64,000 nt of DNA from Rozella allomycis CSF55 (lineage: Eukaryota). Every line of letters starts with the position of its first letter. Within the stretch, counting starts at the first letter, position 1. Under the pieces are notes generated by a model. That model did no database searches. It saw only the letters and a program-made list of their open reading frames with translations, and had not been told where the DNA came from. Shown here one piece after another: positions 6,358 through 59,447 of the stretch. Made by a program: the position numbers and the translations under genes. The stretch covers positions 248,001 through 312,000 of the forward strand of contig KE561209.1 in assembly GCA_000442015.1 (NCBI GenBank), written 5' to 3'.

Positions 6358-6847
6358 TTTTACAACAAGACCAATTTTTGGGCCTTCCTCAGCAATCAGA
6401 TCGAACACATCTTTAACAATATGAGCAGGACCGAGCACTATCAAAGCGGCAAGTGCTTTGGCACCGACGACATTTTGATCTCAGTTTATAAAACCGAAAA
6501 CAGTTTGTACAGAACCATTTTTTAACACTTTCCAGGTGGGATCGAATTGTCAAGGCCGTATCAATGGACAATTGTTCAGAGCATTTTGTCGTACCANACA
6601 GAATTCAAGCGTAGGAATGTTGGAAGAGCAAACAGAATCCAACAAGGCCAAAGCATCCTCCTCCGCGAAAGCAATGGTATTTTCAACATTCTGAGTATTG
6701 GAAATGGCCGCGGGAGACTGAATATGGATTCGGTTGAGCTGTTCGAGCTAAGATTATCATCGAAAGGAAATAGACCTGGAACAAAGTCGTTTATAGAACT
6801 ATCAAAGCGGCAAGTGCTTTGGCACCGACGACATTTTGATCTCAGTT
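6358..6847 (-). mobile_element. Fragments of a CRE/SLACS-like non-LTR retrotransposon
   Basis: Minus strand encodes WFCTNC...CRRC (Cys cluster), ALALLDSVCSSNIPTLEF, and IVLGPAHIVKDVFDLIAEEGPKIGLVVK (resembles the segment after YxDD in CRE-clade RT). 50-bp repeat at 6437-6486 and 6798-6847; bounded by Ns. Confidence 0.6.
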
Positions 6848-10655: not shown

Positions 10656-11720
10656 TTATTTGGTGGTTGGCAATGGCGGTCTATAGCTTGTTCGCCTTTT
10701 CATCATTTCAGCTCGTTTTTGCGCCTGCGGATTTCTGGCAAATGTGTTTTGGTGTCGGATTTTTTCATTCTCTTTGGCGGTTTTGCAATGCGGTATATGC
10801 CTTTCAGCTGTTTCATATTCGAATTTGCGAAGGCAGTGAGGGCATTGCTTTAAATCGTCATCATCGTCGAGCGAAAATACGGGTTCGTTGACGACAGTCG
10901 GTCGTGGGATCGATGATTTACGTACAAGAACTTTATCTGCACTCTTGGGTAGCTCTTTTGATTTGGAGGTGGGTAGATCTGCTTCTTTGGCACCTCGTAC
11001 CATCTTTAAGAATTTCTCATGCTCTTTTCTCCAGTCTTTCTTCCTTACTTTCTTTTCTGACTCATTGGAATTCTATATATTTGAATTCATTTTAGTGTAC
11101 CGATTGAGGTTTAGCTAGCACGTATTGCTCCAGTTCGGTCCCTTTGACCCGATTCTTTACAATATCGAATTGCTTGCGCTTCTTGTTGGCCACTTTTGAA
11201 CATATTTTGGTATGCCTTTCCATATGTAAGATTTTAACTAGTTTATTACCAAAGCTTCAGGCATGAATGTCCTTCCGCAGCTTTGACATGGCATAAGGAA
11301 CGAAGGGACAGAATACTCGTCTGGCCCATTTTCTGAATTTGCACTAATATCATGTTGAACTTCATGAATGATTGCACTTGGGATAACCTCATCAAATACA
11401 GTTGGCTCAATTTTTGCTTGTTCCAGCTTTTGGATAGAGACGGGTTTTTGTTTCGCGATGGGTGAAAGTAAATTTGGTTTTAAGTTGCTTTGAGGTTTTT
11501 CTGTGTAAGAAACGTTTGGGTGGGAATTATGTGGAAGTTTCGGCAATCGTTGAGCATTTTTCTTCCTGACTTTACATGATTGTATATGTCCCTCTAAACG
11601 GTCTTTGGGTATCTTTTGATGACCTTATTTAAGTAAAATAGACTCCCTACAGTTTGCGCACGCGACCAAAAAATCTCTCAGGTAAGAATTCGCATCTTCC
11701 TGTGATCTCCACAAACATCT
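10656..11720 (-). CDS. C2HC zinc-finger protein of the ZC2HC1/FAM164 family (start approximate)
   Basis: Three C2HC fingers after splicing: CANC..HIQSC, CQSCGRTFMPEALERHTKIC, CPHCLRKFEYETAERHIPHC; also WRKEHEKFLKMVR. Confidence 0.8.
11221..11249 (-). other. Putative non-canonical GT-TG intron, 29 nt
   Basis: gtaataaactagttaaaatcttacatatg; removal gives EAL|ERHTKIC. Nearby AG sites shift the frame. Confidence 0.75.
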
Positions 11721-30994: not shown

Positions 30995-33473
30995 ATGATT
31001 GTAGATACGATAGAGGAAGATACTAATGTCTTTAAATTTGAAAAAAGCCTCACGAACAAGTTGAAGTATGACATAGACTCGTATTCTGGCTATACACCAA
31101 ACTTTAATCCAAGAAACGTAATGTTTGATAAGCCTCTTGACCAATCGTCAAGATGGGCGACAAATTCTTCTAGCCAATCCCATTTTATAACATTAAAGTT
31201 AGAAAAAATGGCTCTTGTTCGTAATTAAGTTTTGTTTGCATAATTTAAGAGACAATTTGTTTTGGAAAGTTCCATAAATGTAATCTATAAAAACTATTTA
31301 AAAAAGCCCATGTCTGTAATATGAAAGAGTTTAAAGTATTTGGTGGGATGTCACTTAATGGAATGCATGAAATTCTATTTGGCGGTCTTCATAATGATTC
31401 TGAGGCAGAGACATTTCCATTGAAGTGTGTGAGAAAAGGGACCATGTTTCCATGCAAATATATTAAAATAGTACCGCTGGCATCACATGGTGGCAATTTC
31501 AACACCAGCATTTGGTATATTGAGCTCAGAGGGATTACGAGGGGCGACATTGTTGAAACTGTGAAGTTTAATTTTAATAAAGTAACAAAATATGTAAAAG
31601 ATGAATGCAGTTTAAAGAGCTTCAAGCGATGAAGTTGACCTTGAAACATTTGAGGCAAAAGAATTTCGTGCACGACTTTCATAGCTTGCTGGAGAGTACA
31701 AAGATCCAATTGGAAGATCCAATCATTTCTCGTTTATACAGTTTTATAGTAAAGTCAATTTTTTACTAATTATTTTGGTGTCAGAGGGTAACTTTAATCG
31801 AGCGGAAAATATGGTTATGAATCTTAAAGATGATGTATTTTTGGATTACGTTTCAAACACTCCTTACAAGCCATTTTGGCGTAGATTAGATATTGACCAT
31901 CATCCTGATAAGCGCCCAGGCGTAAGAGGGGGGCATCAAATGTGCATTGATCCACAACGTCAACTGATTTATTTGCTTGGTGGATGGGATGGTGCTAAAG
32001 ATCTTTCAGATTTTTGGTGTTATAGTATTCGAATGAATAGATGGAGTTGTATTTCAATGGATACCAGGGTGTAAATTTGTAAAATTTCATAAACAAGGGA
32101 TGGCGGGCCAAGTCCCCGAAGTTGTCATAAAATTTGTTTTGATCCAAAGAACCAATGTATATTTGTGTTGGGAAGGTACATTGATCCAGATATTAGGCCA
32201 ACTTCAAATTTGGAGTCCGATTTCTTTAAATATGACATCAATACTAGGAAGTGGCACTGCATCACTCCAGACACCAAAGTAAGCACATGGTTTAAACTTT
32301 ATGTAGAAAAATAATGGACCCATGTTAATTTATGACCATCAAGTTTGCATTGATTCTGAAAAACAAAAACTTTATGTTTTTGGCGGCAGAACAGTAAGAA
32401 TAAAAGTGATTATGAACCAAAGATTACCCCTACTAGCGCTGAAATGTCATATTCTGGTTTATACATTTATGACATTGCTCAAAACGACTGGCATCTAGTT
32501 AGAGCCGATAACATTCAGCCGAGACACTCAGTGCAACTAAAATCCAGAATTGGTCATTCAATGTTGTATCATTCGTCAACTGAAAAAATCTACATTTTTG
32601 CAGGACAAAGAAACAAGGATTACTTGGGGTAATTATTTCTTAAATATTTAATAGTGATTTCTATGTTTATGATATTGCTACTGATCAAATTGTTGATATG
32701 ACTTTTGACTCGAGTAAAATTGGCGGGCCCGACGGTAATTGAAATTTGGAAATTTCATATAGCTGGTTTTACACAAAGGGCTGTCATAGACGAAGAATTG
32801 AATGAAATATTTGTTCTTTCTGGATTGATGAGAGAAAAACAAACTAACACTGAAACATTTAAGAATAGGTAATCAATTTCATTTAATGGTAGTTAGTTTT
32901 TGGGTTTACTCTATTAAGAATGATAAATGGTCTAAAATTTATTGTAATGAGAACATGGATCCATCGTATTGGCTTACAATGCAGCTTCAAGAGCCTTGCC
33001 CGCGTTACGCCCATCAATTAGTTTACGATCCAACAACAAAGGTAACAATGTGCTTTATGGTAAATTAGATGCATTATCTTTTTGGTGGAAACCCTGGATT
33101 AGTTTCAGATTCAAAACAACGTCTGGACGATTTCTGGGAATTGTCTTTAAAGAGACCTTCAGTAGAAGAAATAAAATCCAAAATTCAATTTTTATTAAGA
33201 AAACAAAATTTTATAGAAATGGCTACGATAAACCCAGAAAACGCACTGATTTATCTTCAAAAGTCGCTACATGAAATCGTAAAGGAAGAAGAAGCGTTAG
33301 AATTTAAAAAATTGCCATTGCTTTTGTTTCAAAAAGGTATGCGAAATAGTTTCCACTAAATAGATTCTCTATTATCTATTCGCGATCAAAGAGTTGCATT
33401 GATGGAGAGTTTGTTGCAATTTTTTCCAAACCAAATGAAAGAGCCTTCCCAAAGTATTCTTGATTTTGTCTAA
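30995..33473 (+). CDS. MKLN1: Muskelin (discoidin-LisH-CTLH-kelch)
   Basis: PLDQSSRW, FGKFHKSHVCNMKEFKVFGG, RGGHQMCID, GPSPRSCHK, KSRIGHSM, EPCPRYAHQLVYD. Confidence 0.95.
31749..31777 (+). other. Putative non-canonical GT-TG intron, 29 nt
   Basis: gtaaagtcaattttttactaattattttg; removal gives LYSFI|VSEGNF. A 38-nt GT-AG alternative exists. Confidence 0.5.
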
Positions 33474-33555: not shown

Positions 33556-34215
33556 ATGATAGAATTCATAGTTGAGCATATGGAGGAAGAAATGTTTGAC
33601 TGGAGTATCGCAGGTAACATTAATTATACCTTTAAAATCGAATACAACGACGTCCACGAAAATCTACCATCAAACATGTCACTTTTGGTAACTTGTGTTC
33701 CCGATCAAGATCAACAAAAGATCGCCAATATAAAATCCTCCAACCTTCAAGTTGTTGACTATTTAGCACAAAATAATATTCCTATTGACCAAGTATGCCT
33801 CCTCGACAGTGAGGCTACTACTGTTCTTTCACCAGAAGATGCATCCAAATTCTCCTACTTTCTCTTTGGCGGAATTCTCGGCGATGGTATATATTTTGTA
33901 TTTGTAAAACTAGTTGATGAAATGGATTTTGACAAGACTAGTGAACTTCGCCAGTTCAAATTTCCATCCCGCCATCTGGGCAAGAAGCAAATGCCATTGA
34001 ACACTGCTGTTTTGGTGTCTGCTGATATTTTAAAAGGAAAACAATTTGATGAATTAAAGTTTGTGGATGATCCGGAATGGCCTACAGGGAAAAAAGAAAG
34101 TTTAATAATGCCGTTTCGATATCAAGCGGATGAGCAAGGGAAGCCAATAATACCCGAGAAAGTCTTGAAGATATTATTAGAGTCATCCTGTGATTTAGAT
34201 AAACTATTACAATAA
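33556..34215 (+). CDS. SFM1: SPOUT-family protein arginine methyltransferase Sfm1 (DUF431)
   Basis: FIVEHMEE..W...EY, VCLLD.EA...LSPED...FSYFLFGGILGD, RHLGKKQM, MPFRY. Confidence 0.9.
   Translation: MIEFIVEHMEEEMFDWSIAGNINYTFKIEYNDVHENLPSNMSLLVTCVPDQDQQKIANIKSSNLQVVDYLAQNNIPIDQVCLLDSEATTVLSPEDASKFSYFLFGGILGDGIYFVFVKLVDEMDFDKTSELRQFKFPSRHLGKKQMPLNTAVLVSADILKGKQFDELKFVDDPEWPTGKKESLIMPFRYQADEQGKPIIPEKVLKILLESSCDLDKLLQ
33614..33640 (+). other. Putative GT-CG intron, 27 nt, in frame and stop-free
   Basis: gtaacattaattatacctttaaaatcg; removal restores WSIAEY. Confidence 0.65.
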
Positions 34216-48839: not shown

Positions 48840-50012
48840 CTTCAGCCTCAATTGTTTGCCCATCAGGTGTGACTAGAACACTGGCCATTAAACCTAATGA
48901 TCCAAATCCTTGTGCAATGATATCTGACTGTACATCTCCGTCGTAATTCTTGCAAGCCCATATGAAACCTCCATCTGATTTCAAAGCCTGTGCAACCATA
49001 TCATCAATCAATCTGTGCTCATAAAATATTCCCAATTTTTCAAACGTCGTCTTGAAATCATTCCTATTTTGGCGTTTTAGTAAGGGTACTGATAAATGTC
49101 TTCAAATATATCTTTGAATCTTCCATCATATTCTTTCAAAATTGTATTTTTGGTTGAAAGGTATAAAGGCATTTTCTTATTCACGGCCATTTGGAAACAA
49201 CTTTGAGCGAACCCCTTGATGGAATCGTCAGTGTTAAACATTGCCATTGCAACACCAGGTCCATTAAAAGTATTGACTGTGTGAACAATGGATGGCTGTT
49301 TCATTCCTTTGGGAATAAATCTAATTTCAACTTCACCGGGTCCTGGAACTAAAAATTCTGTTGCTTGGTACTATTGCATTAAACAAATATGCNTTTTTTA
49401 CTCGATCCATTCTATTTTTATAGATTCAAAGGAATCCATGGAGCTTCAACATTAACGCATATTCAATTTACTGTTGTTATGAATAGTGGAACATCAATAG
49501 ACTGGTTAGATTCATGATTTGCAAAAAAACTTCCAGCACCTCAAANGCTTAGTCCAGCCTGGAACAATCTTTGGTAAACTGGGAATAATGATTGGTTCTC
49601 TAAACACTGTCCCATTCAACGACTTTCTAATCGTTCCATTGGGGCTTTTCCACATCCTCTTCAACTTGAATTCCGTATTTAACGAATAAATTGAAAATTT
49701 ACCTTTAACTCTCGCTTCATCTGGTGTTATTGTGGCACATTTGATTCCAACACCAACTTTCTTAATCTCATCCGCTGCATAATGAGTGACGAGATCATTA
49801 GTTTCATCACGATGGGTAATACTTAGGTCGTAGTACTTTGTCTCCAAATCAACGTATGGGAAAATCAGCTTCTCCTTTATCATCTTCCATAAGACTCTGG
49901 CCATTTCATCTCCATCTAGATCCACAATTGGGTTTTTCACTTTTATTTCTAGTCTATCTTAAATTTTCATATTACTATTCATTGTGGAATAAGTTCTAAT
50001 TGAATGAAACAT
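48840..50012 (-). CDS. IDP1: NADP-dependent isocitrate dehydrogenase, fragmented by N joins
   Basis: [55 protein letters not shown]. Parts missing at N49393-49546 and beyond N48839. Confidence 0.93.
49673..49702 (-). other. Putative GT-GG intron, 30 nt, in frame and stop-free
   Basis: gtaaattttcaatttattcgttaaatacgg; removal restores [17 protein letters not shown]. Confidence 0.7.
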
Positions 50013-50253
50013 TTTGGAAATTTCGAGTGTATGAGAAAACGAGTAGAGGAATAAAAAGGTGGCGATTCAAAAGATGTAACACCAAATTTGATGCAAGCCT
50101 ACAATTAAGAGAAACATGTCTTTATTGAAAACAATCAACATCATTTAAAAGTGGAGAGTGCCAGTAAGCTACTATGCCGGATTTGGAATACGTAAAATTA
50201 TATTTTCATGATAATTCGGTTCAGCTTTAACGTTTCGAGATCCAGACCCTTGC

Positions 50254-50979
50254 ATGAATTTTATTCTTTCCTTTTTGGTAGCTCTCTTCTGCAACAAAGT
50301 TGAAAAAACAAGCTTCCCTGTTCTTCCGTGGGAAACAGATGCAAATATTTTTCAATATCTTTCAGGGAAGGAAGTCACAGAACTGATTCAATTTGGTCAC
50401 TATAAAGCCCAATACAAAGAAATTCTTGAAATTTTAGAGAAATGTAATCCATTAATATATGGTTCATCATCTCCATACCACTTTGCATTTAGTGCATCAG
50501 ATACTGATCCAGATTGTTTCAAGGGTCAAAACCCAGAAAGTATTAAATTTTTGATGAAACAGTTCAAATTTGCAGTCCTTTATTTAAAAATCGATGATTA
50601 TTTAGCTAAAGCTAAATTATTCGAAGCATATGGATTCAATGGAAGAAATATATTTGTTTTAGTTCTGAACTCTAGTGAAGACCTTGATAGTTTCGAAAGA
50701 GTTGAAGAGTTTACGAATATAAACATTTTGAAAGTTTACATTACGTCTAATATTGTACTTCACAGAGGAATGGCTCATTTATCAAAAATTATGAAAGATA
50801 ATACATCTATCAAAACGTTGTCATTGAATTCATTATTTAATAGAGGTTATCAAATGGATCTAACAGATAACCTGTTTAAATCATTAAGAAACATTGAATC
50901 ACTTTCGATATTACAAAAGAATGTACCAGTGCTGTTCAAGGTCTTCAAATCTTTGAATGATCATGTTCTGTCATTAGGA
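50254..50979 (+). CDS. Signal-peptide/F-box-like/LRR protein, truncated at N50980
   Basis: MNFILSFLVALFC, then LPWETDANIFQYLS, then IKTLSLN and IESLSI repeats. Confidence 0.55.
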
Positions 50980-51241
50980 NCAATTCGAGAAAAATAATGT
51001 GAACACAATTCATTTTTTTAATGCAAGAGAAGCGAGTACAGCCGCTAGTATGGAAAAGTATGGATGTTTCCATATCAGAATATTAAAGTTGGTGAAAATG
51101 TAAACCTTTTTCTTTTTGGCATGACACATTAACATATAATTATTATCAGGCGTCTTAGGTTTGAATACTAGCAAATACTAAATTATAGGATTTCAGTACC
51201 TAAACCTTGTGCTCCGCCTCAGCCACATAACACATTTGAAA

Positions 51242-52302
51242 ATGCAACATTTCCCGCTTGAAATTTGGCTGGTAATTTTATCGCACTTAAGCCTAAATGA
51301 TATGAAACAAATGATTAGAACATCACCCTACATTCGTCTACTCATCTTGGACTTCATTCTTCATCAAGATCCTGCAGTGACTATTTCTTGGAAATGTCCA
51401 TATGTAATTCAATATCTAATCAAACAATTCTGTGGTATCTGGCTAACCAAAGATATATGTGACGATTTCTTTAGCCACAGCGCGCACAGTAAGAGGTTTG
51501 TGCATTTTTTGAACTTTCTAAAACAAGATGACACTTCTCAAAGNGATGAGTCAATCAATCAAACTGATTTAAATCAAAATTTATTAAATAATTGTAAAAG
51601 TAAATCAACTCATAGCCCTAAAGAAATTAGGATGAAAAAGAATCACTTAATNATTTAGATGACAACGAAAATGATGCGAAACTAATATTGAAAATTCTAG
51701 CTGATAATTTACATAACATTCAGCATTTGCGTCTTCGCTTTCATTACAGTGCATTTTCTTTGTTCAAAAATTTAGACTATTTTTATAATAAACTTTCTTC
51801 GTCTAAAGTGGAGAGTCTTTCCATTCAAAGTAAAGGTGTTAAAATTAGTGATGAAACAATCAAAATACTTGCAAAAAACTATAAAAACCTGAAAAGTTTA
51901 GAATACAGCTTTGATCATAATTTTTTTGATAAAGTCAGATTGTTATTATCAAATTTGAATTCATCTAAAATTGAAAAGCTAAAAATTTCTCTTCCTTTCT
52001 CTTCGCCAGGCCAAATCGATTGGGTCTACTTTGCAGAGAATATAAGAAATGTCAAAGAATTAAGTATCACAGACTGTCACATAACACTGGAAGACCTTGA
52101 AACATTGTTGCAAACACATCCACGTTTGTACCTTCTTGATCTTTCGTCTGCGTTTTTGCATGTTCAGGATTCGGTAAGGTTTGCCGAAGCTATCAATCAG
52201 ACTTCAATCAAACATTTAACGCTTAAGAATAACCAACTTAATGTCAATGAAGTGGAAGAGAGGCTCAAGGGCAAAGTAACACTCACAATAAATAAACAAT
52301 AA
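51242..52302 (+). CDS. F-box/LRR protein(s), interrupted by N joins at 51544 and 51652
   Basis: MQHFPLEIWLVILSHLS F-box; LRRs VESLSI, LKSLEY, IEKLKI, LYLLDLS, IKHLTLKNN. Confidence 0.7.
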
Positions 52303-52478
52303 TCTGCATTAATTTCTATTGTTATTGTCAAATGGATTTTCTTTAGTTTTGAATATTTCATTCCCTACTGACAATTCGTTTGGATTGATGCATGATATCG
52401 TTTTCAAGACGTTCCATTTTCCCGGAGTGTAATCGCATTCAAAAGCGAAAATTCTAACATGCGTACATTTTGAAACCN

Positions 52479-53044
52479 GAGCTGTTAACTATGCGTTCCA
52501 ATTTGCGTGCCAATGTGGGTTATTGCATACAGCTGAAAATTATCTTCAACTTGAACCTTCGGCAGACAAAAACTATGCGATAAGATTAGCGGCAAGAAAT
52601 GGCCACACTGAGATTGGGAAGTACCTTTTAACAAATCCAAGAGTAGACCCAAGTGCAAACTGCAATTTCGCTATTCAGTGGGCTTCAAATTACGGTCATG
52701 CAAATGTTGTTAAACTTTTGCTAGAAGATCCTAGAGTAGACCCAAGTGCAAATGCTAATTTCGCTATAAAGTGGGCTTCATATAATGGTCACGCATATGT
52801 TGTTAAACTTTTGCTTGCAGATTCTAGAGTAGATCCTAGTGCAAATGACAATTTCGCTATAAAGTGGGCTTCATATAATGGTCACGCAGATGTTGTTAAA
52901 CTTTTGCTTGCAGATTCTAGAGTAGATCCTAGTGCAGATGATAATATCGCGATAAAGTCGGCTTCACAATACGGCCACGCAGAAGTTGTTAAACTTTTGC
53001 TTGCAGATTCCAGAGTAGATCGTTACAATAATGCTATTCAGTGA
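52479..53044 (+). CDS. Ankyrin-repeat protein (VDPSANDNFAIKWAS type), 5' truncated
   Basis: Near-identical 102-bp/34-aa repeats with GHADVVKLLLADSRVDPSA. Confidence 0.9.
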
Positions 53045-53586
53045 ATCAGCGGGCTATTTATGGAGATCATGTAAGTGTTCTTAAACTTTTGCTTGAAGAT
53101 AGTTGGCACATGGGCTAATTACAATTTCGCTATTCAGTGTGCTTCCAAATATTGTGTTACAATTTAGATGCGCTTAACGTACAAATTACAATTACAGATG
53201 CACTTCACCTTTCAGATTCCAGATAACAATTAACAATACCAACTTGATTTCTTGCTGGAAAAACTCATGTTTATTTATATTCCCATCCAAATCAATACAT
53301 ATTAATTTGTTCTAAAGTCTACTCAAGTATTTTATCTTTGCGAGAGTGTGAGGCGGAACTAACGAAATCTATTCCTTCTCTTATATGCAGCATCAGAGGG
53401 CATTTTGATATGTATTTAAGCAAGTCCGTTTATTCTTTGGCTGACCCGCCCATTAGCAATACAGTTACATCGCGACATAGAGCAAATAAAAATTCGTGGC
53501 AAATAATTAAACTGACACAAATAATCGAATAATGTGTATTTGATATCTTAATTTTAGAGGGTAACTAAATTTATTAATTGAATACT

Positions 53587-53900
53587 CTAACGTGCAAATA
53601 TTCTTGATCTGATAGATGAAGATATTGATTTTATAGTTGACGCCCTTTTCAGTGATGGCGAGGTGCTAGCCCCACTTTTAGTATTCTCCCGCGCAAACAA
53701 AGCTCTAGCATTCTTTGATTTGACTTCACTTAACATTTTGGAATACTCATCTGCACCCAATTTTTGTTGATACGCCTGTGTATTCTTGCCGAAATTCTGA
53801 TTTGCGGCAACAGCTTTAGAAAAGTATTTCAACGCATCATTCCTCGTCTGGTTGTCTAGGTTCGAATTGTGCAATTTTGAAGTGAGTTTCTTGATAGCAG
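53587..53900 (-). CDS. 3' fragment of a hypothetical protein
   Basis: Open frame from N53901 to the stop at 53587; no family recognised. Confidence 0.45.
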
Positions 53901-53924
53901 NAAAGTCGTATCTAGAGGAATTAA

Positions 53925-54350
53925 ATGGCTACAAACTATTATCTAGTCATCGTAGATGCAAATGACCATCCTGTATATGAAGCAGAATATGGTCCATTAT
54001 CCAGAGGTGAAGTAAAAAAGGAAGATTGGAGACAACTTATACAATTCATAGCATATTCATCACTAGATGTCATTGATGAATCTATAATGAATTCAAATGG
54101 ATTTTATTTTAAAGTTATTGATAAATTTAATGAGTGGTTTGTATCGGCACATATTACTCCAAGTGGAATGAGAATGGTTGTTTTACATGATGCGCGAAAT
54201 GAAGACGCGATTAAAAATTTTCTTTTTGATTGTCATGAACTATATTCAAGAATGCTGCTGAGTCCTTTCTTTGATCCGAATAGTTCGATACAATCTGTAC
54301 ATTTTGATTCCAAAGTTAAAGCTTTAATGAAGAAATACTTTCAAATTTAA
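53925..54350 (+). CDS. TRS20: TRAPP subunit 2 (sedlin/Trs20)
   Basis: YYLVIV..NDHPVYE, QFIAYSSLD, IDKFNEWFVSA, IKNF, LSPFF. Confidence 0.95.
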   Translation: MATNYYLVIVDANDHPVYEAEYGPLSRGEVKKEDWRQLIQFIAYSSLDVIDESIMNSNGFYFKVIDKFNEWFVSAHITPSGMRMVVLHDARNEDAIKNFLFDCHELYSRMLLSPFFDPNSSIQSVHFDSKVKALMKKYFQI

Positions 54351-54406
54351 TTAAGTAAATCAACAATAGAATGTAAATATCATTTAGTTTTATTGAGAAG
54401 GAGCTT

Positions 54407-55632
54407 CTATTTTTTCTTTTTAGTTGTTTTCTTTTTACCCTCATCCGCCTATTTTATAAAACATTTTTCACTTACTTTTCTCTTTGGAGTGCTATTTGCA
54501 GCGACAGGTGCTTTCTTGAAATAAGAATCTAAACGATTTTGGACCTTGGCTTCCTTTGCTTTTAAAAGCTTCTTGACCCCATTCTTCACTCTGTCTTCAC
54601 TGAATCCTTTCTTCTTCACCAAAAATTCTATCAATTCTTCTTCATTTGGAGCTTCCCACTTTAAAACTACGTTGGAGACATCAGGAAGAACTTCTGGTGC
54701 CTTAAACAATTCCCTCGCCTGTTCAAAGGGCCAATCTTCAGGAATCTCATACTTTTTCTTATCTAAAGACTCTAATATCTTTTCAAGGCTTCCATGAGTC
54801 TTCATCAAATTCACCGCTCTGTGAGGCCCAATCCCCTTGATGGAATCACAATAATCACAGCCTAACAAAATACACAAATCAATAAACTAAAAATATTCGA
54901 GTAATAAACTTACCTGATCCATCGTCATTTCAAGCCCATCCAAAACCTTTTCAAGATTGATTTCGCTGATTGGCATTTTCCTTGCCTCACTAAACGTTAA
55001 ATGTCGAGAAAGAATTGGAGATCCAAAAGTTAAAGTATCCATATCCTCGGATCCAGCTGAATAAACTTTTCCTGCTTTGCAAAGTGCCGCACATTGAGCC
55101 TCTGCTTCGCACGGTGCCTTTGCTAACCAAATAAAATGTTTACTTCGATGTAAGGAATTCCCATTAAAGATAATAACTTTTTACAATCTTCATTATGTTG
55201 CTTTGTTACTTTCACAGTTCTCTTAGTGAATTTGTCGACCGTTTCCATATCGCCTTGAAATCTTCAAAATTTATACATACCATCCTCTTGTGCTTTTTCT
55301 GCAGCTTGTTCTGCCTCTTTACGCTTTTCTAATCTTTTCGCCAGCTCCCCGCTCTTCATGGTGGGAGGTTTGCCATCAAACACGTAAACTGGTTTTATAC
55401 CATGCTCAACCATTCGTATGGTCCTCGTAAATAATCCTACAATATGACTAGTCTCTTCCCCGTCGCTATTCATCAAGGCACTTCCTTCGTTTCGGATTGC
55501 GATCAGAAATTGATAGATCGACATACTAGCATCTATTGCAACTTTTCTTCCAAAATATTGCTGAATAGAAAATTCTTTGATAGCATCAGGAGCGTGATCG
55601 GCAATCACTTTTGAAAGTTGGTGAATTCCCAT
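54407..55632 (-). CDS. FEN1: Flap endonuclease 1
   Basis: [49 protein letters not shown] box QNRLDSYF. Confidence 0.98.
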
Positions 55633-55779
55633 TCAAAGAAAAAAGTTGTAAAAATCTAAAACTTGCAACAATGGAAGCACATTAAAATCTTTTCAAAGAC
55701 ATTTCAAACATTTTAAATTTGTTGCTACTTGCTGAAAAAAGTTTAATGTTTAATCTAAAATTCCTGGTGGCTTTTGCAA

Positions 55780-56295
55780 ATGACACGATTGAGAATCAAT
55801 GAAGACAATACATTCAATAACAATGCGAAAGACATTAAAGAAAAGTTGTTAGAAATCCAAGCCGAGGATGATAAAAGCAAAAGAAAATTTACTCTAGTAC
55901 TCGAAAACGTCTTTTGGATAACGGCTGGAATCTTTGTGCTATGGTACTCTGACATTATAAATATTTTGATGTCGAAAAATTCTCATCTGAACTGGTAAAT
56001 CATGGAGGAATCTCTTAATCTCAGGACATTCCTTTATATGTCTATTTTGACAGGCACCGTATTTATTTCAATATTCATTTATACCAATTTCTACCTGTCC
56101 AAAAGGTTAGGAAAAAATTATCTCTTTGAAAATTGGAAGGAAGAAATTCCTATGGCCATCAATTTGGCGACATTATCAGGCATAACATCCATCGTTACTT
56201 TTACAATAGGAATCTATGGCTACTATGGCATATTATCCATTATTTATACTCTAATTTTAACTTTTTCATCAATCACTCTGCTTGGATTGTTTTGA
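55780..56295 (+). CDS. TMEM128-like small membrane protein
   Basis: FWITAGIFVLWY, IFIY, WKEEIP.AI..AT; four TM segments; one 30-nt intron. Confidence 0.6.
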
Positions 56296-56330
56296 ATCAG
56301 TCAAGGTTTAATAAATTTCGAAAGTGATTC

Positions 56331-57343
56331 ATGTGTAGTTTTAGCTTTACTTTTTCGATAGCACTTGCTTTTGTTGTGAGCTTAATAATAGTAATATTTT
56401 TATGTGTCAAATTTGAGTTAAGAATGGTTAGTGTGAAACGCTTTCGAAATATGATTCAGACTGACTGCGCTTTCGAATATCTCGATTTGAAAACAAAGAG
56501 GAAAAAACGGTTCAATAAATTGGAAGATGCCGAAACATGCTACCTGTCAGTTGTAATACCTGCTTACAATGAGTCTGAACGAATCATCAAAATGCTCGAT
56601 GAAACAATTAGCTATTTAACCAAAAATAATTATGATTTTGAAATCATAGTTGTGAATGACGGCAGCAAAGATGACACTGTATCTGTGGTTGAAACCTATC
56701 GATTGGCAAATAATATACATCGATTAAAGGTTTTAAGTTACCAGGATAATCTTGGAAAAGGGGGTGCCGTAACTACAGTACATTGAAATTTGCCTTGTAA
56801 TACTAGGGAATGTTGAATGCTTCCGGAAAGTACATTCTTTTTGCCGATGCAGATGGTGCATCAAATTTTGAAGAGATAAAGAAACTCGAAAATGCTATTA
56901 TACAAGAAAAATTCGATGCAGCGTTTGGTTCTCGAGCTCACATGGTCAATACTGCTGCTGTTGTAAAGGTATAACGTCGCTTCTGTTCGTGTTAGAGATC
57001 AATTTTGAGGAACATTTTGATGAAATGTTTTCATTTCTATTTGTCTATAATGGGCATTCGTGATATCGCTGACACACAATGCGGATTCAAAATGTTCACC
57101 AGGGACAGTGCCAGACAAATCTTTTCAAACATGCATGTGAAGGGTTGGATATTTGATATTGAAGTTATCATTTTGTTGAGATTCTTTAAGAAGAAGATTA
57201 AAGAGATTCCTATTACTTGGCATGAAGTGCCGGGTTCGAAAATGTCGTTAATGTCTGATTCGTTCCAAATGGCTCTTGATTTATTCTTAATACGTTTCAA
57301 CTATTTTACCAAATTTTGGAACATAAAACACCATCAGCAATAA
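56331..57343 (+). CDS. ALG5: Dolichyl-phosphate beta-glucosyltransferase
   Basis: [48 protein letters not shown]. Confidence 0.95.
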
Positions 57344-57400
57344 AAAAGGCTTTGCATTAATCTTTTTCAACGTGATCATATTCAGCCTGAAATTTCGTTA

Positions 57401-58044
57401 ATGTCAGCAGACGTGGAATCTGCCGTGCCTCAAGGAAACATTGGAGCTCCTCCACCACAGCAGCAATCAATTCTTCAACAATCAAGGTAATCTTTAATTT
57501 GTCAATCTGAAAGCCATCCTGTAGCTTTAGTTTTCCATTTATTATTCAGAACATGTGCTCTAGTTTTTTACTTGATACTATCTTATGCAATTAAAAATTT
57601 TATACTCGTGTTTGTTATAACTGTTCTTTTACTATCATTTGATTTTTGGACCGTCAAGAATGTTACAGGAAGGTTGCTTGTGGGCTTAAGATGGTGGAAC
57701 ACAATTAAGCCTGATGGTTCTAATGATTGGGTATTCGAGTCTAAACCAGTAAAAATATTTCAAATTATTATTCGGCACATATAATTGTAAATCCAGTTGA
57801 TTCCAGAGTGTTTTGGTGGAGTTTGTACATTTTTGCTGGAATTTGGTGGTTGCTAGCATTAACAAGTATTCTGACTCTAAGTATATCTTGGCTGATGATT
57901 GTTATGGTTGCCATAATGTTGAATATGGCTAACGTAGCTGGATTTTCCAAATGTGATAAGGAAGCGAAGAAAAGGGCTGCCGGTGCTCTTGGACAAGGAA
58001 TTGTGGGCCAAATACTTTCAAATAGGTTAGGAAATATATTTTAG
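57401..58044 (+). CDS. TVP23: Golgi membrane protein Tvp23/FAM18
   Basis: HPVALVFHL, DFWTVKNVTGRLLVGLRWWN, WVFES..NPVDSRVFW. Confidence 0.95.
57749..57774 (+). other. Putative non-canonical GT-CG intron, 26 nt
   Basis: gtaaaaatatttcaaattattattcg; removal gives WVFESKP|AHIIVNPVDSRVFW. No in-phase AG nearby. Confidence 0.75.
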
Positions 58045-58061
58045 AATGAATAAAAGTTCTG

Positions 58062-59447
58062 TCAATTTATTATTTTTACGTAATTGCCTTGATATTATAC
58101 CTGGGTTGAATTTACTTGGAAAGACACCAGATTCACCTGATTGTAGTTTACCTTCCCACCAAGCATCTCCTTCGGGCTGTTTTACAATTTGTATTCGATC
58201 ATTGGCTTTAAATGATAAATCACCAGGTTGTTGAGCTGTGAAATCGAATAATGCGACAGCAAATGTAATCCGAGGAGGGGTAGGGAGGGGAACCCTCTTT
58301 TTATTGGCAGCTGCAGTGGCAAGACTCCCTGTGGAGTTGTTTGGAGACGGACCTTTCAAAATTGGATATATTCCTTTTTCTTGATTTTCGACCGGGCTTT
58401 TTATAGATGAAGGAGCAGAAGAAGTATCACTTTCGGACTTGCCACCTATCTCAATTAATATCTTGGAATACCTTTCTTTCCCATTTTTAAAAGGGCTAAA
58501 TCATCCACCAATTTAAGGACTTCCTCGCGTTCTTTCTTAATGAGCTCCACAATACCTTGTCCATAGGAATTTGATTTATCTAAAATTTGTAAATAGCTGC
58601 AAGCAGCATCAAAGAAATTCTTCTGAAAACAAAATATGGACTCCAAAATTGGTTTCATGAGCTCTTCACGCAGTTGGAAAAAGACTGGAAGATCAGTCTT
58701 CAGAACATTATTGTATTGATCATATTCACTTTTAGACTCGTCAAGTAATTGTTGTTGCTTTTTATTAGGATATTTCACTTCTTACTTTTGCCAGTTTTCG
58801 CTCATCAACAGGACTTGATGTAGAATTCGACTTCATTTTTTGATACGAAAGTCTATGACGATCATAATCTACTAATTTATGCGATCGTTTCTTCATTTTT
58901 TCTTTGATTGGTTTCATTATTGTCAAAACTTGTGCTAAAACACTTATTACATTTTCTTCTATAAAAGTATTCTAAATTAATTAGTGGAATGTAAGTGTTA
59001 CAACTTGATTTTCAAGACTGCTCTTTAATTCATTGACCTTCCCAATGTACTTAGTGGCCATGTCGCAAGCATCTAATCGTTTCTTTTCATCTATTTCTAC
59101 AGCCATTCCTTCATCAGAGGGAAGAGGTTGAAAAATATCTTTTATCACACTAGCAAATGACGCTTGATGTTCTAATAAACCTACTATTTTGCATAAGACA
59201 GGTTTACTAATTGAGGATTCTTTAAATTTCTTTGCATTCTCTAAAAGCTTAGCAATTGAAGCCTCAACTTCATTAAAATACGTTTCCATCTGTTTATATT
59301 CTTCGTCAACAGTACCTAGACAATTTTAGTTTTTGCTTTATACTTTCAACAGATCCTGCAGCAGACTTAACCATATGTGGCAACCTATTGAATGCTTTTT
59401 GAACGCCCTTCCTATATACAATGCTTCTAACACTATTACCAACTCAT
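58062..59447 (-). CDS. RVS167: BAR-SH3 amphiphysin (Rvs167/Hob1-like)
   Basis: Spliced start MSWKGVQKAFNRLP, KRSHKLVDYDRHR, LKTDLP, SH3 ALFDF..QQPGDLSF..WWEG..GVFPSNYV. Confidence 0.92.

Follow-up and report, generated by a model that had tools for sequence, protein, structure and literature searches.

TVP23 and its predicted second intron

The DNA analysed here, a stretch of 64,000 nucleotides referred to as the window, comes from contig C861 in the 11.86-Mb genome of Rozella allomycis, a fungus-like parasite. On the plus strand the window carries TVP23, a Golgi-protein gene. Its first exon (57401..57486) begins with an ATG at 57401 and encodes the N-terminus given by public model P0278, which also has the identical exon join across intron 1 (57487..57513), a canonical GT-AG intron of 27 nt. 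Exon 2 (57514..57748) covers positions 2-79 of PF05832, and exon 3, which reaches the stop codon (57775..58047), covers positions 80-139. Between these two lies the segment 57749-57774, i.e., 26 nt that read GT..CG with a C at 57773, which we predict to be a phase 0 intron (GTAAAA..TCG). In line with the original prediction that TVP23 needs a frame-restoring GT-CG intron here, the upstream frame meets a stop at 57782, the remainder of PF05832 is encoded in another frame, and the proposed splice unites the two. Exons 2 and 3 both score above the PF05832 cut-off, and the whole DUF846 domain is obtained only if the intron is removed. In a Pfam scan, the upstream match ended with residue 77 of 78 on profile position 78, and the downstream match opened with residue 5 on profile position 84; thus, the two halves join exactly. 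These two exons are the only PF05832 matches in the genome, making TVP23 single-copy, and once spliced as predicted it is an ordinary member of the TVP23/FAM18 family of Golgi membrane proteins.

The donor of this intron, GTAAAA, fits the genome consensus, being the second commonest donor (143 of 1403 short canonical introns). Since the segment ends in CG (57773-57774) and not AG, we filed it as a variant and not as a canonical member of the U2-type spliceosomal introns. Its candidate branch A lies at 57770, within a TTA at intron position +22, and a T occupies +23, the place where the A usually stands genome-wide. The next AG ends at 57796, i.e., 22 nt beyond the CG and +48 from the donor, and is out of frame.

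To delimit the junction, we enumerated the frame-restoring donor and acceptor pairs around 57749-57774. It had been proposed that a 68-nt intron was the only in-phase GT-AG alternative and that it would delete conserved residues. The deletion is real, but the 68-nt intron is not the sole canonical option, as GT-AG introns of 56, 77 and 80 nt (from upstream donors) and GC-AG introns of 32 nt (57775-57806) and 41 nt also restore the frame. All of these canonical options delete conserved residues, and those scored, which leave aside the 77-nt one, fell 17-67 bits under the CG model. The scores came from an HMM of TVP23 built from 106 of 120 homologues (14 that lack the downstream motif were dropped) and applied to 14 models of the locus. 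The CG model ranked first of the 14 with 285.3 bits, ahead of an indel read-through (273.4), the 32-nt GC-AG intron (268.0), the 68-nt GT-AG intron (244.3) and the unspliced reading (180.3). Its lead over nearby non-canonical ends was small, with 282.9 bits for a 23-nt GT-AT intron and 282.5 for a 29-nt GT-CA intron. Homology thus fixes the donor and the rough length only, so that the exact end of the intron rests on the rules of the genome.

Two features of the homologues bear on this donor. The spacer between FES and DS, measured in the 94 of 120 homologues that match the pattern, is 10 residues long in 57, 9 in 23, 11 in eight, 12 in five and 21 in one, and splicing at the CG would give the modal 10 residues. 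In addition, 60 of 68 homologues without the downstream motif have a Val (GTN) exactly at the donor site, compared with 2 of 118 intact ones. This Val is the reading of an unspliced GT, and the donor site is by the same token ancestral. A U12-type or AT-AC intron was considered and rejected: the shortest frame-restoring AT-AC intron would be 50 nt, which is not a local length, and what we take to be the U12 donor consensus is absent from intron 2. Of related interest is P0002, a JGI TVP23 protein with 69% identity, whose sequence carries an insert of 9 residues where intron 1 would lie and no break where intron 2 would. The insert is likely a retained 27-nt intron, and the source of P0002 is possibly a relative with tiny introns. 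A metagenome scan with P0002 returned 80 loci, whose best segments were 33-56% identical to it, and none looked like a close relative.

The two public models of the gene, EPZ31668.1 and RKP19698.1, give the same truncated protein of 126 aa with an out-of-frame end after ESKP. They share the donor described above, but use the AG at 57796 (a 48-nt intron), and look like predictions made under a requirement for AG. As both annotations yield the same 126-aa protein, the second assembly presumably also lacks an AG at +26.

The original prediction called for a check of C57773 in genomic reads, and DNA contigs from two studies carry the C. We compared contigs from 4 of 15 listed sequencing runs over 49400-58300; all four behave as DNA, presenting no intron-sized joints. 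The X1 contig over 57416-58300 (depth 228) has three differences from the window, none at 57773, and by our own reading both of its coding differences in TVP23 are silent. The X8 contig over 57728-57927, from another study and at a depth of 2.8 only, has no differences; one of the X1 and X8 runs may be the assembly's own source. Run X4 has seven differences in the TVP23 stretch and one C>A somewhere in 8.9 kb, and is uninformative for 57773, and the X5 piece ends at 57726, short of the site. The DNA contigs show that the genome is heterozygous in this region, and as contigs collapse alleles, a C/A heterozygote at 57773 is unlikely rather than impossible. Upstream of TVP23, three N-flanked stretches (50979-51653, 51542-52480 and 52477-53902) are skipped by X1, X4 and/or X5 contigs and show a repeat-like high depth inside; the interval 50979-53902 probably consists of assembly faults or allele-specific insertions.

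Taken together, homology, conservation of the intron position, the length rule of the genome and the DNA support for the C favor the GT-CG intron as the best model. We consider it highly probable that 57749-57774 is an old U2-type intron spliced at its CG acceptor, yielding a full protein of 196 aa.

Predicted short introns and non-AG acceptors on three contigs

Introns end almost invariably in AG, which structures explain by the pairing of this dinucleotide with the intron's first G and with the branch A. To establish what is usual in Rozella, we ran a simple self-trained gene model, trained on C861, on 797,675 bases of three contigs. It predicted 1585 canonical introns, of which 1403 were 26-31 nt long, seven were shorter and 132 were at least 60 nt, the last group probably including false calls. 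An A stood at +23 from the donor in 87, 72, 65, 76 and 65% of introns of 26 (n=331), 27, 28, 29 and 30 nt, respectively; for lengths 27-30 nt this amounts to 680 of 971, as compared with ~35% of 867 exonic GTA..AG controls. This A at +23 (+22 in TVP23) may be the branch point. In 1336 of 1347 introns the acceptor was the first AG to end at or beyond +26, with AGs ending at +24 (85 introns) or +25 (32 introns) being skipped.

We then allowed every non-canonical acceptor and donor at an equal penalty and tallied the GTA introns of 26-31 nt. Their acceptors were AG in 1347 cases, TG in 25, GG in 11 and CG in 10, with the other 12 dinucleotides totalling 46. TG, CG and GG (collectively BG) thus make up 46 of 92 non-AG calls, while their share of non-AG dinucleotides inside introns predicts 9%. 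The scoring favors rarer dinucleotides, which makes the composition-matched set TC, CC and GC the fair control, and this set received 12 calls against 46 (P=8e-5). When single sets were run separately, the counts were 50 for BG, 20 for BC and 24 for AH; we quote the head-to-head counts because true BG introns, when displaced by a few bases, may swell the single-set controls. After correction for noise, TG, CG and GG acceptors would account for roughly 2-3% of short introns. Noise in the gene model amounts to ~100 non-canonical donor calls (4-11 per dinucleotide) and the 46 non-G acceptor calls, against which CG and GG alone appear modestly above background and TG clearer. BG introns that keep the frame are under-called (1 of 46, versus 77 of 1347 for AG). 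Relaxed donors were also considered as a parallel class; these calls fell evenly over 14 dinucleotides and were read as noise.

An A was present at +23 in 34 of 46 BG calls and in 25 of 46 other non-AG calls (P=0.04), a comparison in which the model's acceptor matrix itself favors a nearby A. Counting from +26 onward, the first AG is at +33 or beyond in 43 of the 46 BG calls, and 37 of these 46 end at the first G at +26 or later. On C861, 23 of 32 BG calls could be scanned on both sides, and seven of these match the same or an adjoining Pfam model in order, namely in PGAP2IP, FHA, CK2 beta, TVP23, HMG-CoA lyase (twice) and tRNA isopentenyltransferase; the remaining 16 of these 23 had no two-sided Pfam match. 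Among non-G acceptors, two-sided Pfam support was found for 3 of 16 testable calls, one with a TG 3 nt downstream, one with an AG 1 nt downstream, and an unexplained one in Pcc1 (L049:233-207, minus strand), where a GT-CT intron was called with Pfam support on both sides. Pairs of BG candidates occur within single genes elsewhere on these contigs. A YEATS-domain gene carries GG and TG candidates (L045:6306-6333 and 6750-6777, i.e., C861:498306 and 498750), the two strongest calls in one scan, and the HMG-CoA lyase gene carries GG and TG candidates on the minus strand (L023:7389-7362 and 7116-7090), each supported by Pfam on both sides.

Within the window, six BG calls were made among 138 short GT introns. 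Candidates other than that of TVP23 comprise a 29-nt GT-TG intron in a C2HC zinc finger (11221..11249, minus strand), whose upstream exon runs as far as PF13913 position 17 of 25 and whose downstream exon has no match; a 29-nt GT-TG intron in a muskelin-like gene (31749..31777, plus strand); and two 27-nt GT-CG introns on the plus strand, one upstream of an SFM1-like exon (33614..33640) and one at 50192..50218, where the C is present in the X4 contig over 49699-50922 (four differences, all elsewhere). A further candidate, a 30-nt GT-GG intron in the isocitrate dehydrogenase gene (49673..49702, minus strand), comes from our own reading; the gene model called a 29-nt CG intron with a frameshift. 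Contigs from X1, X4 and X8 reveal a 1-nt deletion allele at 49698, inside this candidate. Retention would shift the frame on the deletion allele, which favors a real intron. The same gene is broken up at single N positions (49545 and 48838) by sequence that looks unrelated, probably reflecting local misassembly.

The oddity at TVP23, originally viewed as a single case, belongs to a genome-wide class of TG, CG and GG acceptors. The intron is best read as a CG-ending member of this predicted class, i.e., as a variant of U2-type splicing.

Competing readings of the TVP23 segment

A recent AG-to-CG mutation, fixed or confined to one haplotype, could have disabled or weakened the intron, leaving retention or the 48-nt splice to 57796 to produce a truncated protein. 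TVP23 is non-essential in yeast, and this reading would accommodate the 126-aa public models with their out-of-frame ends, the heterozygosity of the region and the missing A at +23. Yet exon 3 is open and conserved up to PF05832 position 139, the gene is single-copy, and 48 nt is beyond the 26-31 nt peak. Moreover, damage at random should affect the A no more often than the G or the donor, whereas the acceptor calls concentrate on TG, CG and GG. We thus regard a recent mutation as unlikely. That the intron is real and ends elsewhere, as a 29-nt GT-CA, a 23-nt GT-AT or the 32-nt GC-AG intron at 57775-57806, is in our estimate a slim prospect. All three ends restore the frame, the former two lie within 3 bits of the CG model, and GC-AG introns are predicted in the genome (18 of 1585); against them, canonical introns under 26 nt number only 7 of 1585, and among the 92 non-AG acceptors CA was called once and AT twice. 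The GC-AG intron would, for its part, lose NPVDS, retain nine intron-like codons, score 17 bits lower and ignore the ancestral donor.

Two readings dispense with the CG intron entirely, and both appear very improbable. The N-flanked faults a few kb upstream lend some weight to an assembly error, in which either position 57773 is truly an A or a base has been dropped and no intron exists. This reading is already largely refuted: X1 and X8, from two studies (one possibly the assembly source), have identical letters and are gapless across the site, the second annotation has the same truncated protein, and an indel read-through would create a 19-aa spacer seen in 0 of 94 homologues and score 12 bits lower. 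Alternatively, the overlap of the two frames by 37 nt (57745-57781) would give room for a -1 ribosomal frameshift producing a full protein without splicing. Here the spacer would be as long as in the indel model, and the segment has all the marks of a local intron and begins at the ancestral donor.

The Prp18 loop and a possibly relaxed acceptor

The major spliceosome is present in Rozella, with Prp18, Slu7, U2AF1, U2AF2, Fyv6 (Fyv6/FAM192A at C861:205676-205948), Prp8, U2 and U6 all found in the genome. A cause in the loss of Prp18, Slu7, U2AF1, U2AF2 or Fyv6, or in changed U2 or U6, was rejected, as all were found and looked ordinary except for a loop of Prp18. U2 retains GUAGUA and U6 retains ACAGAGA, which we take to be the consensus, and the alpha-finger segment of Prp8 looks conserved, with a Gln in what is presumably the place it holds in yeast. 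FAM32A (PF08555) gave no match in the whole genome, a result that does not in itself establish its absence.

The conserved loop of Prp18 (L144:1561-1752 in G000:C1022) is rewritten within an otherwise conserved domain. Compared with its 149 best homologues, a set made up of the best matches to the Rozella protein itself, Rozella Prp18 matches 27 of the 33 columns with a conservation of at least 90%, and of the six columns where it differs, five lie side by side in the loop. The loop changes are T to M (T in 141 of 149), V to I, G to N (G in 137), I to L and H to N (H in 148), together with one inserted residue that 147 of the 149 lack. Scored for deviation over six loop columns and the insertion, Rozella has 6, the next worst protein 3 and 122 of 150 none, making it the most deviant of the 150. 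A shifted alignment could pair the loop His with Rozella H281; the neighboring conserved columns favor the first alignment. Both public Prp18 records show the rewritten loop and differ by three residues just before it. Partly deviant loops occur in other homologues, including those of Gorgonomyces and Anaeramoeba, and the Prp18 of solved structure 9if7 also has an insertion at the loop.

Structural and genetic work, in the portions available to us, offers a frame for these changes. In the P complex of yeast, the partner of G(-1) is G(+1) and that of A(-2) is the branch A, and positions -3 and -4 are buttressed by the loop of Prp18 (10.1101/212811). Yeast without Prp18 uses BG and HAU sites, deletion of the loop raises the use of an AUG site, and loop mutants activate non-AG sites (PMC10711555). 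The Prp8 mutation Q1594A makes -3 and -2 less stringent and also improves a UCG reporter (PMC12707134). A 2026 preprint (10.64898/2026.08.05.741260) locates H289 of human Prp18 at the docked 3' site, on its backbone; judging by the H-x-R spacing, H289 would be the His lost in Rozella.

We propose that the far end of an intron in Rozella is set mainly by position, i.e., by a GTA donor, a branch A ~23 nt in and the first AG to end no earlier than +26. AG would be preferred when in reach, and where no AG lies within ~26-32 nt, a G at the right distance would serve. The last G of the intron would still pair with the first, and the A at -2 would be dispensable. Since the last G follows the putative branch A at a distance of only 3-7 nt, the pair between that A and A(-2) should be strained or impossible, leaving position to do most of the selecting. 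The relaxation at -2 would then be due to the short distance from branch to acceptor together with the rewritten Prp18 loop. Our tentative overall picture, to which we give somewhat less than even weight, is that of a naturally relaxed spliceosome in Rozella allomycis, in which the branch A is too close for the usual A(-2) pair, the Prp18 loop has been rewritten to fit with loss of a near-invariant His, and a few percent of introns, some of them in conserved housekeeping genes, hence have TG, CG or GG as their sole, constitutive acceptor. That the rewritten loop itself causes the relaxed -2 base is a plausible suggestion, though short of a probable one, drawn as the link is from one lineage.

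Acceptors of this kind have precedents in part. The BG (UG, CG, GG) sites of prp18-type S. cerevisiae are alike in the relaxed -2, the retained last G and the implication of the Prp18 loop; according to the available text, they are alternatives in mutants that compete with AG and favor poly(U) tracts (PMC10711555). Those of Rozella, in contrast, are apparently the only usable acceptor, lie in 26-31-nt introns of a natural genome, and coincide with a Prp18 that is present but changed. The UCG improved by Prp8 Q1594A is the same triplet as the TVP23 acceptor, whereas the alpha-finger of Rozella Prp8 is conserved-looking and keeps the Gln (PMC12707134, accessible text). Human TG-AG tandem sites are likewise U2-type with a non-AG acceptor ending in G, and, in the portion of that report available, the TG site is never the sole acceptor and lies near an AG (PMC2374985). 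The TVP23 CG falls outside this tandem class, the next AG being out of frame and 22 nt downstream. In myxobolid myxozoans and Dicyema, ultra-short introns are similarly tiny and have a weakly conserved A that lies farther from the AG in longer introns, and U2 and U2AF are retained; the words non-canonical, noncanonical and Prp18 are absent from the available main text (PMC13644364). For Rozella, the accessible text of PMC8476143 reports intron density only. As far as these partly available sources go, non-AG, G-ending acceptors are already known as human alternative sites and yeast mutant errors, and tiny introns with a sliding A are known in myxozoans. A literature search covering titles and abstract openings, with subscription papers and supplements mostly outside its scope, found no description of non-AG acceptors or of a Prp18-loop change in Rozella. 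Our own contribution lies in showing that DNA contigs support the C, in estimating the class against controls over 798 kb, and in pointing to the Prp18 loop as a candidate cause that can be tested.

Public Rozella gene models, which are used for studying early fungal evolution, would be wrong at such introns, as the TVP23 records illustrate. If our reading is true, a wild genome with a few percent of non-AG introns and a natural variant of the loop by which Prp18 guards the acceptor signal would provide a direct test of the residues that enforce the A at -2, and would also allow one to ask whether position can replace it.
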